This document shows positions 19,270-44,410 of a stretch of DNA of 64,000 bases, piece after piece. Origin of the DNA: an uncultured Acidimicrobiaceae bacterium. Its GTDB lineage: Bacteria; Actinomycetota; Acidimicrobiia; Acidimicrobiales; UBA8592. The notes under the pieces were generated by a model. The model searched no databases and was not told where the DNA came from. It saw only the letters and a list, made by a program, of their open reading frames with translations. Location: NCBI GenBank assembly GCA_963716795.1, contig CAVQUE010000015.1, positions 754,069-818,068 on the forward strand. Direction: 5' to 3'. Position 1 is the stretch's first letter. Each line of letters opens with the position of its first letter. A program made the translations under genes and the position numbers.

Positions 19270-19467
19270 ATGGACACCATGCTGAACACCTACGTCAAGC
19301 TGACCAGCGCTCTCGCCGCAATGCGTGAGCAGGAGCGTGGCGCCACCGCCGTCGAGTACGGCCTGATCGTGGCGCTCATCGCCGCCATCATCATCGGCGT
19401 CGTCGCCACCCTGGGCACCAAGGTCAACGACAACTTCCAGAAGGTCGCCAACAACATCCCCGACTGA
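19270..19467 (+). CDS. flp: Flp family type IVb pilin (prepilin)
   Basis: 65 aa. The leader ends ...REQERG, followed by ATAVEYGLIVALIAAIIIGVVA (Flp motif G/ATAVEYGL). AAGGGG sits upstream of the ATG. Confidence 0.9.
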   Translation: MDTMLNTYVKLTSALAAMREQERGATAVEYGLIVALIAAIIIGVVATLGTKVNDNFQKVANNIPD

Positions 19468-19507
19468 TCGAGATGTGACGACCGGAGGCACAGCCTCCAC
19501 CACTCGG

Positions 19508-19546
19508 AGCCGGGTCCTCTTCGGAGGGCCCGGCTTTGGTGGTTTT
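19508..19546 (+). terminator. Intrinsic terminator-like hairpin after flp
   Basis: AGCCGGGUCCUC-UUCG-GAGGGCCCGGCU: a 12-bp stem with one G-U pair and a UUCG tetraloop, followed by UUGGUGGUUUU. Confidence 0.6.
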
Positions 19547-19796
19547 CGGTTCGAGAGGAAACCGAACCTCTCGAACCGAGTTGGATTCGAGCGGCTGACG
19601 CCGCGCTGTGGCTTTCGGTTCGAGAGGAAACCGAACCTCTCGAACCGAGTTGATCGGAGCGGCTGACGCCGCGCTGTCTTGCGTGAACCGACCGAGCAAG
19701 TAGCTCGGTTCACGCTGGGGGAACCGCCGGAGGCCGTCCCCCCAGGCCCCCTCGCTGGCGGCCTCCAGGCCTCCGCGGGAACACGCCGAGCGCCCC
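19541..19796 (+). repeat. Leader modules of a composite repeat element: two 69-bp direct repeats each carrying hairpin H1, then hairpin H2 and a GC-rich connector
   Basis: Copies at 19541-19609 and 19610-19677. H1 is UCGGUUCGAGAGG-AAACCGAA-CCUCUCGAACCGA (13 bp), at 19546-19579 and 19615-19648. The conserved GAGCGGCTGACGCCGCGCTGT follows. H2 is GTGAACCGACCGAGC-AAGTA-GCTCGGTTCAC at 19683-19713. Confidence 0.8.
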
Positions 19797-20538
19797 GAGC
19801 AGGGCCGTAGTGGCCCGGGACAGGTCGGCGCTCTCCGCTGCTCCCGAGACGGCTGGGCATCCCGGTGGAGGGTTTCGGTATCCCCGTGGCCGTCTCGGCT
19901 GGTCGCTGCTGCTGCGCAGCACGCCGACACCGGCCGGCGACGTGCGCCCCGGCTCGAGCGTGCGACGAGGCCGAGCCAGGGGATCCCGGCGCGTGGGAGC
20001 CGGAGACGAGCCGGCCCAGCAACATCGCGCACCGTCCAGGGCCGCAGTGGCCCGGGACAGGTCGGCGCTCTCCGCTGCTCCCGAGACGGCTGGGCACCCC
20101 GCCAAAGGGTTTCGGCACCCCCGAGCCGTCTCGGCTGGTCGCTGCTGCTGCGCAGCACGCCGACACCGGCCGGCGACGTGCGTCCCGGCTCGAGCGTGCG
20201 ACAACCACAAACGGGGGATCCCGGCGCGTGGGCGCCGGAGACGAGCCGGTCCAGCAACACCGGGGGATCCCGGCGCGTGGGCGCCGGAGACGAGCCGGCC
20301 CAGCAACACCGCGTACCGTCCAGGGCCGCAGCGGCACGGGACAGGTCGGCGCTCCGCGCCGCTCCCCGAGACGGCTGGGCACCCCGGTGAAGGGTTTCGG
20401 TACCCCCGAGCCGTCTCGGCTCGACGCTGCTGCTGCGCAGCACGCCGACACCGGCCGGCGACGTGCGCCCCGGACAGGGCGTGAGACGAGGTCGAGCCGG
20501 GGGATCCCGGCGCGTGGGAGCCGGAGACGAGCCGGCCA
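19797..20538 (+). repeat. Tandem array of three about 235-bp GC-rich units, one carrying a 49-bp internal duplication; non-coding
   Basis: Phase markers GGATCC at 19981, 20216, 20265 and 20502. Each unit contains CCGAGACGGCTGGGCACCCC-N6-GGGTTTCGGnACCCC..GCCGTCTCGG (10-bp inverted arms), then GCTGCTGCGCAGCACGCCGACACCGGCCGGCGACGTGCG and GGATCCCGGCGCGTGGG(A/C)GCCGGAGACGAGCCGGCCCAG. Confidence 0.85.
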
Positions 20539-20655
20539 GGAGACTAGGCACTCCTTCCCATTCGGCGGGTCCGATGGCTCAACTACACCCACCGACTGCC
20601 GATTGAGGGCCCGGATGCGATGCGGGTCACGGCGACGTGCCTGCCCTCGGAGAGG

Positions 20656-21489
20656 ATGCAGATGAGACGAAGAGTGATTGCGCTCGTGGCGGCGGTTCTG
20701 CTCGCCGGCGTGGGGACGATGGTGCTGGTGGGTTTCGTGCAGAGCGCCGAAGAGCGTGCGGTCGCGGGCCAAGAGCTCGTGGCCGTCCTCCAGGTCCGTG
20801 CGGATGCGACGGTTCCCCAGGGCACATCGTCCGAAGAGATCGCCCCGTTGATCGAGGTGGTCGAGGTTCCGGCCCAGGCCAGAGCGGTCGGAGCGATCAC
20901 CGATCTGGGCGAAGTGGCCGGACTGGCCACCGCAGTGGACCTCGTGCCCGGTGAACAGCTCATCGCAGCCCGGTTCGTCGAGGCTGCAGAGGTCCAGGCC
21001 GATCGCCGTGAAGACCTTCCTCGTCGCCGGGTCGCCGTGCCCGACGGCATGCTCGAGGTGCCGATCCGCCTCGATGCCGTCAGCGCGCTGGGCGGCATCA
21101 TCGATGTCGGCGACACCGTTGCGATCGTCGCCTCGTTCGCCAACTACACCGGCGACACCCAGGGCACGGTCACCGTCGACGATCAGGTCGTCGCCGTGCC
21201 CCAGAGTGCCGGTGAGGGAGGCGCAGGCCAGGCCACCAAGATGCTGATCGAGAACGCATTGGTCATCGAGGTGCAGGCCGACACGGCACCGACGTTCGTC
21301 GACGACGCCTCTGGCGAGGTCGTCTTGGCACCTGCGTCGAACTTCCTGGTCACGTTTGCCCTCGAGCCCAACGACGTCGAGCGCCTGATCTTCGCCACCC
21401 AGTACGGCACGCTCTACCTGGCGCAGCAGACCCCCGACGATGTCGGCGAGGGCAGCATCGTCACCATCGAGAACATCTTCCGGGACTGA
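20656..21489 (+). CDS. cpaB: Flp pilus assembly protein CpaB/RcpC (SAF domain)
   Basis: N-terminal TM RRRVIALVAAVLLAGVGTMVLVGFV, then a SAF-like region (AVDLVPGEQLIAARF) and the CpaB C-terminal domain. The start may be ATG 20656 or 20662; GGAGAGG lies upstream. Confidence 0.85.
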   Translation: MQMRRRVIALVAAVLLAGVGTMVLVGFVQSAEERAVAGQELVAVLQVRADATVPQGTSSEEIAPLIEVVEVPAQARAVGAITDLGEVAGLATAVDLVPGEQLIAARFVEAAEVQADRREDLPRRRVAVPDGMLEVPIRLDAVSALGGIIDVGDTVAIVASFANYTGDTQGTVTVDDQVVAVPQSAGEGGAGQATKMLIENALVIEVQADTAPTFVDDASGEVVLAPASNFLVTFALEPNDVERLIFATQYGTLYLAQQTPDDVGEGSIVTIENIFRD

Positions 21490-28418: not shown

Positions 28419-28520
28419 CGCAGCGCGGCACGCCCATGGCGGTGACCGTGGTCGCCTCATCGCGACCGACGCGCACCCGATCGATCGGGTCCGGCCAACG
28501 GCGGCCGGTCCGGTCCGTTC

Positions 28521-28560
28521 GTCGGGGTGGGGCGCCCGGGCGGGGCTGCCCCACCCCGAC
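28521..28560. terminator. Bidirectional terminator-like hairpin between convergent genes
   Basis: GTCGGGGTGGGGC-N14-GCCCCACCCCGAC, a 13-bp perfect stem, between the stops at 28418 (+) and 28575 (-). Confidence 0.55.
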
Positions 28561-28574
28561 GGAACAGCCGAGGG

Positions 28575-38719: not shown

Positions 38720-39079
38720 TCACGCGGTACCGGACGGGATGCGGTCCTTCGGCCACACCGCACCTGCCCCCTCCATGGCATCGATCAGCTCCTCGAGCGG
38801 GTCGCTGCCCGCGCCGAACCCATCGGTGGCGGCGAGGTGGTCGAAGAGCACCCGCATCGCCGTGGCGAGCCCCGCAGGTTGCGGGACGTTGCGGTGCACG
38901 CACCACTCGGACAGCTCGATCCACCACAGGCGCCAGACGTCCTCCTCGGTGAAGGTCGTCGGTCCCCTGCGGACGTCGGCACACGCCAACACGACCGTCA
39001 TCGCGTCGAAGTCGCAGCACACCCCGGTGCGCAGCGCCCACCGTGCCACCGCCGGCGCGGGTGGTCCGGGCATCGACAC
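38720..39079 (-). CDS. Hypothetical protein
   Basis: 119 aa. ...TTFTEEDVWRLWWIELSEWCVHRNVPQPAGLATAMRVLFDHLAATDGF.... Coding-like bias, no family recognised. Confidence 0.45.
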   Translation of the reverse strand: MSMPGPPAPAVARWALRTGVCCDFDAMTVVLACADVRRGPTTFTEEDVWRLWWIELSEWCVHRNVPQPAGLATAMRVLFDHLAATDGFGAGSDPLEELIDAMEGAGAVWPKDRIPSGTA

Positions 39080-39203
39080 TCAACCGGGCGACATCGCGCG
39101 CTCGTCGCGCGGACGCACCCCGGGTCGGAGCGTCACCAGTGGGAACCGGGCGAAGATGTGTCGTCGTCATGGTCCCGAGTATGCGGAGGGGGTGTGACAC
39201 TCG

Positions 39204-39700
39204 TTTCTGGGCCGGCTCGTCTCCGGCGTGCTCGCGCCGGGATCCTCGGTCTGGTGACGTCGCACGGTTGGTCCGGTGTGTACGTCGCCGGCTGGTGTCG
39301 GCGTGCTGCGCAGCAGCGGCGCCGGCCGAGACGGCCACGGGGGTGCGGAAACCCTTTGTCGGGGTGCCCAGCCGTCTCGGGTGGGGCGGGAGCGCCGACG
39401 TGTCTGGGGCCGCTGTGGTGCTGGTGGTGCGCGGTGTTTCTGGGCCGGCTCGTCTCCGGCGTGCCTGGCGCCGGGATCCTTCGGGTTGGTGACGTCGCAC
39501 GGTTGGTTCCTGCTGTACGTCGCCGGCTGGTGTCGGCGTGGTGCGCAGCAGCGGCGCTGGGCCGAGTCGGCCACGGGGGTGCCCAGGTGACCCACCGGGG
39601 TGCGTCGCCGTCTCGGGGGAGGCGGGTGCGCCGACGGGTGCCGCCCGGCGGCGGCGGCCTGGCTTCGAGCGCTGTGTCCGGGCACGCGGTTGCCTGGGAG
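39204..39700 (-). repeat. Second copy, in inverted orientation, of the about 235-bp tandem unit array (about 2 units)
   Basis: GGATCC phase markers at 39240 and 39474 (234-bp period). The reverse complement aligns block-for-block with 19797-20538: GGATCCCGGCGC, CCGGAGACGAGCCGGCCCAG, CCCGAGACGGCTGGGCACCCC, GGGTTTC, CCGTCTCGG, GCTGCTGCGCAGCACGCCGACACC. The array ends at the same unit position as the left array. Confidence 0.85.
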
Positions 39701-39850
39701 CCGCCAGCGAGGGGGTCCGGGGGACGGCCTCCGGCGGTCCCCCCGGCGTGAACCGAGCTACGTGCTCGGTCGGTTCACAAGAGACAGCGCGGCGTCAGCC
39801 GCTCCTTCAGAAAACTCGCTTCGAAAGGTTCGTTTTCCTTTCGAAGCGAA
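39701..39850 (-). repeat. Leader modules of the inverted copy: connector, H2, and a single H1 hairpin
   Basis: H2 at 39748-39778, H1 at 39816-39849. On the minus strand H1 reads UCGCUUCGAAAGG-AAAACGAA-CCUUUCGAAGCGA (13 bp), followed by GUUUUCU. It starts 8 nt after the stop of the upstream minus-strand gene. Confidence 0.8.
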
Positions 39851-39857
39851 ACCCCCC

Positions 39858-40851
39858 TCAGTCCGCCGCGGCGAGTTCGTAGACATCGGGGGCGACGGCG
39901 CCGATCAGTTCGCCTTCGACGACGACATCGACCTGATCGACGGCGAAGGACGCCCGGGCCAGGGTCACCGTCATGGCGGCATCGGTGTCCGGCCCGGCGA
40001 AGGTCAGACTGCATCGGCCGGCCCGGCGCAGGTGGGCGCCGGTGATCGTCGATGGATGCGGGCGAGCGCGCCGTTCCACGGCGAGCCCGATCCCGACCTC
40101 GGCCACGCGGCAGGGCTTGTCCGGGTCGAGGCGTTCGAGCTCGAACCGCAGCGTGTCCGCGTCGGCGTTGTCGCCGAGGAGGTCGACGACCCGTCCGCTC
40201 GACACCTCGAGGCGGACCGGCGACCGCACGACGGTCGCCTCGAGCAGGTCGCCCGGCATCAGGACCACGGTGCCGTTGACGATGTCGGCGCGAGGCTCGC
40301 AGCCACACGAGGCCGCCCGGCCAGACACCGTGGTCGCCCGTCTCGGTGGCGATCACCGCCGGGGCGCTGCTGGTCGCACCCGTGAGGCCGATGTCGACGA
40401 TGGTGCCGGCGGCGGACGACAACACAGCCGACCCGCCGTCTGCGACGAGTTCGGCGGCACGCTCGATGCGACGCATCGAGCCCGGATGCGCCACGAGCGT
40501 GTCGAGATCGGTCGTCGTCGGGCATCGATGGACAACAGGCGTGCCACCTCGAGGATCGCCTCGCGGGCCGACGAGGCCGCGACACGACCGGTCAGGTCGA
40601 TGACCAGTGCCGCACTGGTCAGGGCCGCCCGCATCACCGGCGCTGCGATGGGATCGTCGCGATCGATCGCCCCGTGCGGGGTCGACACCGGTGTGAGCGA
40701 GGCACCCAGACGTTCGCCGACGATGACGAACACCTCGGCAACCGAGGGGTCGACGCCGATCGTCGAGGACGAGGGCGATCTGCTCGCCCGGGGTCACCGC
40801 GCACAACTCCAGCTGTCGGGTGACCGTTTCGATACGCCGCCAGGTGCTGAT
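39858..40851 (-). pseudogene. M29-aminopeptidase / NicX-like family protein, interrupted by at least 2 frameshifts; family call tentative and start uncertain
   Basis: Pieces lie in three minus frames: WRRIETVTRQLELCAVTPGEQIALVLDD; FVIVGERLGASLTPVST..VMRAALTSAALVIDLTG; ...LVADGGSAVLSSAAGTIVDIGLTG; NGTVVLMPGDLLEATV..RVAEVGIGLA..VVVEGELI. GAGGAGG precedes an ATC at 40851, and no clean ATG is present. Confidence 0.5.
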
Positions 40852-41002
40852 GGTCGGCCTCCTCGTCGCCGGGTCAGGCCTCTCCGAGAAGGCCGATCGC
40901 GCCTCACCGTACCGTCGCGTCGGTTCGCCGTGGCTCCATCCGTTGTTCACCAACTCGTGGGCTGTAGCGTCGTGGTCGGTGGAGTCGGTTGGCTGTGGTC
41001 GC

Positions 41003-42736: not shown

Positions 42737-44410
42737 TGACAGACAGCCCCGAGCCGGCGCGCACCGGCGCACGCCCGCAGCCAGACGACCGACGAGGCAC
42801 GACCGCTGTGGCTGGTGGCGCTCATCGCCGTCGTGGCGATCGCCGTCGTCGGTGTCGGTACCTTCGCCTCGCTGCGCAGCGACGACAGCGACGAGCCCGT
42901 GGAGACCGCTGTCGGTGCGCGCCGGGACCGTGGCCGAGGCGGACAGCGGTGATGGTGCATGCCGGCCAGGGGGTCGACGCCGGGGGCGATGATGCGACTG
43001 CCACCGCCGCGCCCGAGCCCACCGCTGCGCCCGAGCCCACTGCGACCTCGAACCGGAGCCGACGCCCACGCCGTTCGCCGGCCTCGTCGACCCGGCCTCG
43101 GTCGGACGCCCGTACGGCGACACCGTCGACGGGCTCCTGACCTTCCGCGGCAATCCGACCCGGACCTTCTACGGCATCGGCCCGGTGCCCGCCTCGCCGT
43201 CGTTGCAGTGGTCCTACCCACCCGGTGGCGGGCTGTGTGGCCCGTCGACCGTCGGCGGCGAGACCACCCAGTGGTGCGGAACCGGCTGGACGGGCCAGCC
43301 CGCGATCTTCGAACGCGACGGCCGCACCTGGGCGGTCTTCGGTGCCTACGACCACGACGTCCACTTCCTCGATGCCGACACCGGCGAGCAGATCCTGCCG
43401 CCGTTCCCGACCGGCGACATCATCAAGGGCAGCGTCACCGTCGATCCCGACGGCTACCCCATCGTCTACTCGGGGTCGCGTGACGACTACTTCCACCTGA
43501 TCGCCATCGACCGTGACGAACCGGTCGAACTCTGGCGTCTCGACGCCGACGCCCCCGGGGCCGAGTGGAACAACGACTGGGACGGCTCTGCGCTGATCCT
43601 CGACGACTACCTGTTCCAGGGCGGCGAGAACTCGGTGTTCCACGTGGTGAAGCTGAACCGGGGCTACGACGACGACGGGCTTCGTCACGGTCGACCCCGA
43701 GGTGGTGTTCACGGCACCGGGCTACGACGCCGACCTGCTCGCCGCCGTCGGACCCAACGTCTCCATCGAGAACTCGGTGGCCGTCAGCGGCAACGTCGTC
43801 TACTTCGCGAACTCGGGCGGTCTCGTGCAGGGCTGGCGCGTCGGGGGCCTCGATCGGGGCCGCGAACCCAAGCGGGTGTTCCGCTACTGGGTCGGCGACG
43901 ACGTCGACGCCTCGATCGTCGATCGACGACGAGGGCTTCCTCTACGTCGGCGCCGAGTACGAGCGGGGCAACAGCCGCTCTCAAGAGATCGGCCAGCTCG
44001 TCAAGCTGAACCCGCGCAAGAAGAACGACCCGCTCGTGTGGTCGGTGTTCGACACCGGCGCGCTCCCCGGTGGTATCTGGGCCACACCGGCGCTACACGA
44101 GGACCTGATCATCGCCCCCACCGACTCCGGACGCCTCCTCGGCGTCGACCGCGCCACCGGCGACATCCGTTGGGAGTTCCGGCTGCCCGGACCGTTGTGG
44201 AGCTCGCCGGTCGTCGTCGACGACGTGCTGCTGCAGGGCGACTGCGAGGGCGCCCTCCATGCCTACGACCTGAGCGACACCACGGTCGAGCCGCCACCGC
44301 TGTGGACGGTGTCGCTGACCGGTTGCATCGAGTCGACGCCTGCGGTGTGGGACGGCCGCATCGTCTTCGGAACGCGGGCGGGTCAGGTCCACATGCTGGG
44401 CGATTCATGA
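42737..44410 (+). pseudogene. Membrane-anchored PQQ-like beta-propeller repeat protein, interrupted by at least 4 frameshifts
   Basis: TM segment LWLVALIAVVAIAVVGVGTF, a PEPTAAPEPT linker, then propeller segments in three frames: GWTGQPAIFERDGRTWAVFGAYDHDVHFLDADTGE; VVFTAPGYDADLL..VYFANSGGLVQGW; IDDEGFLYVGAEY..LLGVDRATGDIRWEF..VLLQGDCEGALHAYD..GRIVFGTRAGQVHML. Confidence 0.7.

Follow-up and report, generated by a model that had tools for sequence, protein, structure and literature searches.

What is the organised block of about 1 kb that separates the pilin gene flp from the tad assembly genes in an uncultured Acidimicrobiaceae bacterium, and is it part of the pilus locus or a resident of wider distribution? 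The block, designated copy A, lies in a 64,000-nucleotide (nt) stretch of contig CAVQUE010000015.1, the whole of which is called the window here. An initial annotation, made from the sequence alone, had described it as a repeat of no recognised class, placed where pilin-versus-machinery expression ratios are normally set. Our analysis indicates that copy A is probably one instance of a lineage-restricted, modular, hairpin-rich family of intergenic repeats from a small Acidimicrobiales clade, of the REP/BIME or BOX kind, and that any effect on flp or tad is incidental. The family is non-coding, modular, dispersed in both orientations, variable in copy number, and gained or lost between close relatives.

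A composite repeat present twice in the window

The features of copy A and its two neighbouring genes are as follows, all on the plus strand; handles beginning with L denote loci outside the window.

19270–19467: flp, Flp/Fap pilin of 65 amino acids (Pfam PF04964, E = 1.2e-16), orthologue of flp1 of the relatives and upstream neighbour of copy A
19504–19549: intrinsic terminator of flp, a 16-bp stem then a T-rich tail (terminator scan); hairpin also kept in L028 and L030
19541–19609: head module 1, hairpin H1 (arms 19546–19558 and 19567–19579) and 21-mer hairpin (19589–19609)
19610–19677: head module 2, hairpin H1 (arms 19615–19627 and 19636–19648) and 21-mer (19657–19677), 94% identical to module 1
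19683–19713: hairpin H2, GTGAACCGA..CCGAGCAAGTAGC..TCGGTTCAC, arms at 19683 and 19705; three compensatory base pairs relative to the L028 orthologue
19715–19790: hairpin H3 (arms 19715–19724 and 19736–19745) and GC-rich connector; compensatory change in copy B
19790–20026: unit 1, comprising P0, P1, the 35-nt core, a variable stretch, P3 and the tail (nhmmer E = 6e-69; unit alignments)
20027–20260: unit 2 (nhmmer E = 1.5e-66)
20259–20309: solo tail module, P3 hairpin plus GAGACGAGCCGG tail, equivalent to the 49-bp duplication; solo tails also in L009, L003 and L001
20311–20546: unit 3 (nhmmer E = 2e-64)
20577–20606: conserved motif GCTCAACT-N13-GCCGATTGA near cpaB, outside the repeat, invariant in orthologous tad loci
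20662–21489: cpaB/rcpC (Pfam PF16976), probable start ATG 20662 with GGAGAGGA just before it; start kept in orthologues

The layout given by the initial annotation was recovered to the base. Two 69-bp direct repeats (19539/19541–19609 and 19608/19610–19677) are 94% identical and each holds a perfect 13-bp hairpin; the 21-mer GAGCGGCTGACGCCGCGCTGT stands at 19589 and 19657, followed by H2, the connector and the units. The latter repeat with a period of 236–237 nt (90% matches) and are phased by GGATCC at 19981, 20216, 20265 and 20502. The P1-arm motif CCGAGACGGC was found at 19844, 20081 and 20366, its partner arm GCCGTCTCGG at 19889, 20125 and 20410, and the palindrome GCTGCGCAGC at 19911, 20147 and 20432. 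The 49-bp duplication is 98% identical, and the recurrence of solo tails at several loci shows that it is characteristic of the family rather than artefactual. Shuffles of the window gave a chance expectation of 0.0–0.2 matches for the module patterns. The flp stop at 19467 lies 1194 nt from the probable cpaB start, in agreement with the 1.19 kb first reported; the conserved start is ATG 20662 and not ATG 20620 of a longer open reading frame (ORF).

The non-coding nature of the block was likewise borne out. Over 19640–20420 the three codon phases do not differ in G+C content (0.72–0.83), whereas the flanking genes flp, lhr and cpaB show a strong third-position G+C bias in a genome of about 69% G+C. 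The absence of codon-phase asymmetry across copy A implies that the region is non-coding and that the long ORFs running across it (224–375 amino acids, plus one of 860) are spurious.

An exact match to the P1 arm at 39365 on the minus strand, returned by a pattern search of the window, was the lead to a second composite, 19 kb away, that had been overlooked in the initial annotation:

39203–39857, minus strand: copy B, composite of one H1 module, the 21-mer, H2, H3 with connector, and two units (blastn, 79% identity over 658 nt to copy A)

The H1 arms of copy B lie at 39816–39828 and 39837–39849, its H2 at 39748–39778 and its units at 39434–39672 and 39201–39432, and its 21-mer is identical to that of copy A. 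It begins right after the stop of a NicX-like gene, and its other end falls about 30 nt short of ATG 39170, which is probably where the downstream gene originally started. At the syntenic position (site B) in the metagenome-assembled genome (MAG) Ske_MAG14, only 73 nt separate the NicX-like gene from the downstream gene's orthologue, and 46 of them match the position of the element; the window has 655 nt in place of these 46 nt, between TGAGG and GAGTGTCACACC. The 46 nt resemble the tail motif plus a P0-type hairpin, so that a deletion in the MAG is as likely as an insertion in the window.

Both genes flanking copy B (38723–39170 and 39858–40920, minus strand) look frame-split when compared with their Ske_MAG14 orthologues (the 149-amino-acid P0122 and a NicX-like protein of 361 amino acids). 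They are either pseudogenes or the product of single-base indel errors in the assembly; such errors would leave the architecture described here unchanged. The sequence TGTCACAC-N8-CATACT (window 39199–39178, minus strand; L026 5974–5996; L009 6308–6352) ends 7–8 nt before the ATG downstream of copy B and resembles the actinobacterial promoter of the RecA-independent DNA-damage (PafBC) type on a leaderless mRNA. GAAC-N4-GTTC, also present in the paralogous leader of L009, resembles a LexA box. The next gene encodes a LysM protein.

Distribution and structural constraint of the family

One genome per prokaryotic species was scanned with a 24-nt unit core. The single genome matched was Acidimicrobiales bacterium Ske_MAG14, with 12 exact matches in 9 stretches, and a profile hidden Markov model of the window units found single, tandem, inverted and truncated units in it. 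At all nine loci the units are intergenic: the ORFs on either side show the G+C pattern of coding sequence, and units point either way with respect to their neighbours. They are 81–87% identical to those of the window; the two genomes are syntenic, and their proteins are mostly about 70–94% identical. Ske_MAG14 also holds a third composite, in which a degenerate head and units lie antisense to both adjoining genes. Counting the copies and recording their contexts thus gave a second composite in the window and nine intergenic loci in a related genome.

A metagenome scan with a 21-nt core returned 11 matches, all due to chance and within coding sequence, and no match to the element was found in viral, plasmid and phage collections. 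The spurious ORFs spanning the element were used as probes of protein databases. They retrieved four related 'proteins' among 5.8 billion sequences, three of which run into head-like sequence; a set of 1.84 billion cluster representatives yielded three more, together with the ORF of the window itself. The latter three repeat the translated core (AAAAQHADT.RRR) and tail (AGDEPA); the translated core and tail were present in spurious ORFs of at least seven other assemblies, and only in those among the 1.84 billion representatives. In public assemblies the repeats are annotated as 'hypothetical proteins' of 185–300 amino acids (P0142–P0149), one of which (P0146) comes from the window's own genome. 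These results establish a genuine repeat family that turns up in independent assemblies but only within a narrow lineage.

The architecture common to the family is a head (one or two modules of H1 plus the 21-mer, then H2 and H3) followed by a variable number of units of about 235 nt. Each unit contains two covarying hairpins, P1 and P3, a 35-nt core (GCTGCTGCGCAGCACGCCGACACC.GCCGGCGACGT) and the 12-nt tail motif GAGACGAGCCGG. In copy A, copy B and L028 alike, every module has the same, direct orientation.

Covariation was assessed in 18 near-full-length aligned units. The proportion of paired cells was 95.8%, compared with at most 46% when the partners were slid, and the observed covariation was matched by none of 500 shuffles. 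Six pairs had changed on both sides, four in P1 (CCCGAGACGGC/GCCGTCTCGG) and two in P3, and in L030 and L004 the P3 stem is of a different sequence, GTCCCTGT..ACAGGGAC. In the head, two compensatory pairs distinguish H1 of copy A from that of copy B, three distinguish H2 of the window from that of L028 (GTGAA/TTCAC to GTCTG/CAGAC), and H3 shows one compensatory change, from CTGG..CCAG to CCGG..CCGG in copy B. Hairpins H1, H2, H3, P1 and P3 are therefore under structural constraint. Copies that elsewhere differ by 15–30% have almost the same 35-nt core and GAGACGAGCCGG tail, and the core exists in only two or three variants, which are common to different loci. RNAalifold predicted two long-range helices, one pairing GTCGGCG with the left half of the core and the other pairing GCCGGCGACGT with ACGAGCCGGC in the tail, which would close two domains; all four of their strands are invariant, so covariation lends these helices no support.

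The head of copy A folds much better than its shuffles (z = -6.95), and the folding energy of a single unit is unexceptional (z = -1.2). Forward and reverse folding energies showed no consistent difference and gave no strand preference for the units; the tally of wobble pairs (G.T 10 versus A.C 5) slightly favours the given strand but is not significant, and H2 of L006 has two G.U pairs. No terminator and no promoter-like site was found within or between units. A role in Rho utilisation was dropped, since C-richness on the unit strand is seen in copy B and the MAG units but not in copy A, which is balanced, and a RecA-NDp-type promoter on the reverse complement of the core was rejected by eye because the spacing and the -10 hexamer did not fit.

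Ske_MAG14 contains a second repeat family, made of two or three tandem units of about 62 bp, each with a 12-bp hairpin (GGCGCCGAAAAC...GTTTTCGGCGCC) then a TTGGAT-like sequence. It is frequent among the sampled loci of that genome (L002 3701–3897 and 4444–4697; L009 4713–4847 and 5428–5560; L001 7823–7956), was not seen in the window, and recalls the H1 modules and REP clusters. Self-comparison of the window also revealed isolated imperfect palindromes at 28520–28561 (43 nt) and 43892–43956 (70 nt), unrelated to the repeat family.

History of the flp–cpaB site

An orthologous series was built from CpaF homologues and their contigs. Each entry gives the CpaF identity to the window, the flp–cpaB spacer and its content.

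Window: 100%; 1194 nt; two H1 modules, H2, H3, three units and one solo tail
L028 (Ske_MAG14): 98%; 1062 nt; 21-mer, H2, H3 and two units
L021: 97%; contig stops inside a unit tail; element present, short-read break
L029 (same CpaF protein as L028): 98%; contig stops inside a unit tail; element present, short-read break
L030: 96.6%; 476 nt; a degenerate H1/21-mer module and one unit
L024, L025, L031 and L032: 87–88%; 140–412 nt; without the element

The array at flp–cpaB was thus found only in close relatives (CpaF 96.6–98% identical), with one, two or three units. In the element-free relatives whose contigs extend far enough upstream, L025 (7660–7839), L031 (3347–3562) and L032 (3521–3703), a divergent second pilin gene, flp2, lies between flp1 and cpaB, and the only flp visible on L024 is of the flp2 type. 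As flp2 was undetectable in the element-bearing clade, the array occupies the flp2 slot, which corresponds to 19468–20576 of the window, and flp2 has been lost in the clade that carries the repeat.

The flp terminator is kept at all orthologous loci. The motif GCTCAACT-N13-GCCGATTGA is invariant in 8/8 orthologous tad loci, L031 and L032 included, at 55–85 nt upstream of the cpaB start, while the spacer otherwise diverges; it is probably a promoter or operator of the operon for the tad machinery. With a terminator on its 5′ side and this motif on its 3′ side, the array sits in a gap between two probable transcription units.

Relation to known repeats and competing explanations

Rfam 15 gave no match at the gathering score in the whole window. 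The best sub-threshold match, of the Xanthomonas sRNA asX4 to a unit tail (20182–20252, minus strand; E = 1e-4), reached 25 bits where the gathering score is 100 and probably reflects a chance likeness between GC-rich hairpins, and copy B and L028 gave only weak miRNA-like hairpin matches. No published description of this repeat family was found in a literature search. A CRISPR array was rejected, as the 235-nt homologous blocks are contiguous and share core variants, no Cas domain occurs in the 20 window genes searched and no CRISPR family of Rfam was matched. An integron attC array was rejected as well: there are no coding cassettes between units, and the same 20 genes include no integrase domain. 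Type III toxin–antitoxin repeats, which are tandem RNA repeats of about 36 nt with an endoribonuclease toxin, do not fit units of 235 nt followed by cpaB or an unrelated small gene. The view that the element is neither CRISPR, attC nor an IS (insertion sequence) end, and matches no known family, therefore stands, with the qualification that it belongs to a dispersed repeat family. Among actinobacterial repeats, mycobacterial interspersed repetitive units (MIRUs) are tandem as well, occupy the spacers of co-directional genes and differ in copy number from strain to strain. MIRUs are 46–101 bp long and have short ORFs that are in-frame coupled to the adjoining genes; they lack hairpins and a core arranged as in the present family.

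Comparison with BOX elements of Streptococcus pneumoniae (boxA, variable tandem boxB, boxC) showed that the family is likewise composite and intergenic, with end modules around a variable tandem array (PMC3049150); heads followed by one to three units were found at three distinct intergenic loci. Extensive predicted structure, strain-variable copy number and restriction to close relatives are further likenesses, and in both cases any effect on neighbouring genes is probably exerted through co-transcribed structure (PMC3049150). However, BOX is restricted to streptococci (PMC3049150), and the present family is GC-rich, has no sequence similarity to it, repeats a module of about 235 nt instead of the 45 nt or so of boxB, lacks inverted-repeat pairing between head and tail, is conserved in the central 35-nt core and not at its ends, and has, by estimate, far fewer copies per genome. 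REP/BIME elements are also short GC-rich extragenic hairpins in mosaic clusters after genes, with compensatory changes in their stems (PMC2817692, PMC3184786); they protect mRNA 3′ ends, act in attenuation and have associated RAYT transposases (PMC2817692, PMC3184786). The same effects on transcripts would be expected of the present family. In appearance the H1 modules are REP-like, as are the 62-bp hairpin repeats found in Ske_MAG14, but the hairpins of the family are in direct instead of alternating orientation, a 235-nt unit far exceeds a REP in size, and the copies are estimated at tens and not hundreds. Neisseria intergenic mosaic elements (NIMEs, RS units flanked by dRS3) and Correia elements resemble the family as mosaic arrays of 50–150-bp intergenic units, often near surface-structure genes including pilin loci, that serve as recombination substrates; they differ in that NIME units are bounded by 20-bp dRS3 inverted repeats (phage integration targets), whereas a Correia element ends in inverted repeats and is accompanied by a TA duplication (PMC1797815); the family has none of these. 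BOX elements and REP/BIME mosaics are the closest analogues in function and architecture, although on the features compared the family belongs to neither.

Given its position, copy A could be a dedicated cis-acting RNA of the flp–tad locus, a structured 3′ untranslated or intercistronic RNA that terminates, processes or stabilises flp mRNA and so sets the pilin-to-machinery ratio. The array is co-oriented with flp and cpaB directly 3′ of the flp terminator, is kept at the orthologous site in four assemblies, maintains H2 and H3 pairing between orthologues by compensatory changes and has a strongly structured head. However, the same composite stands between a NicX-like gene and a gene of the DNA-damage type, a degenerate version is antisense between two other genes of the MAG, and units are scattered over nine loci in both orientations. 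Moreover, tad loci with about 88% CpaF identity lack the array, near-identical loci have one to three units, and on the 3′ side of the array cpaB retains a conserved motif of its own. Because the same composite is found at unrelated loci, even in antisense, and sister lineages run the operon without it, a dedicated role in flp:tad stoichiometry is unlikely, and the proposal of a special junction element that sets expression ratios is not upheld. We are about equally sceptical of each unit being a structured non-coding RNA gene of a multi-copy small RNA (sRNA) family, with the core as functional or seed region and P1 and P3 as scaffold hairpins. An invariant core in a unit that otherwise diverges by 15–30%, the covariation of P1 and P3, an orientation independent of neighbouring genes, and the slight, non-significant wobble bias together with the G.U pairs of L006 are compatible with such genes; promoter-like sites and terminators are missing from and between units, the single-unit fold is unexceptional with neither strand consistently better, many copies are truncated or reduced to solo tails, Rfam gave no match, and the long-range helices are invariant and not backed by covariation.

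Fragments of a known IS or MITE (a miniature transposable element with inverted repeats), the alternative that the initial annotation itself had raised, would also be intergenic, multi-copy and hairpin-rich, would break short-read assemblies and could be polymorphic in presence, as seen at site B. Yet neither terminal inverted repeats nor target-site duplications of such an element were found at copies A and B and site B: inverted repeats are absent from unit and composite ends, and 46 nt were replaced by 655 nt without duplication. The element is also GC-rich and not AT-rich, is conserved internally and not terminally, and lacks plasmid, phage or viral matches as well as a transposase domain among the 20 window genes searched, which makes this explanation very improbable. 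An assembly artefact or a repetitive protein-coding gene can practically be dismissed. Long ORFs do cross the element on both strands and have been called as genes in public assemblies, but codon-phase G+C asymmetry is absent, no reading frame survives the 236/237/285-nt spacing of the units and the one-base indels by which copies differ, and independent assemblies carry the same family at different copy numbers.

Several observations weigh against the interpretation that we favour, a dispersed intergenic repeat family. Units and composites of copies A and B have only internal hairpins and no inverted repeats at their ends (units begin with GTCGGCGCTC... and finish with ...GAGACGAGCCGGCCCAG), comparison of the filled site B of the window with the empty one of Ske_MAG14 detected no target-site duplication, and the 20 window genes searched include no transposase, integrase or reverse-transcriptase domain. 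With neither terminal inverted repeats nor target-site duplication, dispersal may have occurred by recombination alone and not by transposition. The copy number, estimated at tens per genome, is unusually low for REP-like elements, REPs being imperfect palindromes of 20–40 nt that exceed 100 copies per genome; H1, a 34-nt perfect hairpin, was seen in three copies, and the core gave its 12 exact matches in a MAG, a type of assembly prone to repeat loss. Retention of the array at flp–cpaB in four assemblies with structure-preserving substitutions also leaves room for a host function.

If copy A belongs to such a dispersed repeat family, the repeats would behave as selfish or near-neutral DNA. 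Dispersal would probably depend on a protein acting in trans, for which the invariant core and the hairpins would serve as recognition sites, much as REPs do for RAYT transposases, and arrays may grow or contract when the repeated tail motifs slip or recombine unequally with one another. Where transcription of flp reads through into the array, the stacked GC-rich hairpins could act as a barrier to 3′-exonucleases and as a transcriptional insulator, which would be a side effect as in REP, BIME and BOX elements (PMC3049150, PMC3184786, PMC2817692) and not dedicated pilus regulation. A more speculative proposal, which we hold to be doubtful, is that the unit is the substrate of an undescribed single-strand-specific mobilisation system or RNA-guided system in Acidimicrobiia. 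The core is complementary to both the 5′ end (GTCGGCG/CGCCGAC) and the 3′ end (GCCGGCGACGT/ACGAGCCGGC) of the unit, so that a folded single strand would bring the termini onto one conserved platform beside two covarying hairpins. This layout has more in common with IS200/IS605 or REP–RAYT substrates, or with a structured guide RNA, than with a classical MITE.

Read as a dispersed family, these elements add an undescribed class of repeats from a poorly studied and largely uncultured actinobacterial order. The block at the tad locus would be a passenger of genome-wide repeat dynamics that took the place of a second pilin gene in one clade. Its practical effect is that short-read assemblies break at the repeats and that spurious 'hypothetical proteins' enter public databases. 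The invariant internal core and the covarying hairpins point to a sequence-specific partner that is worth finding.

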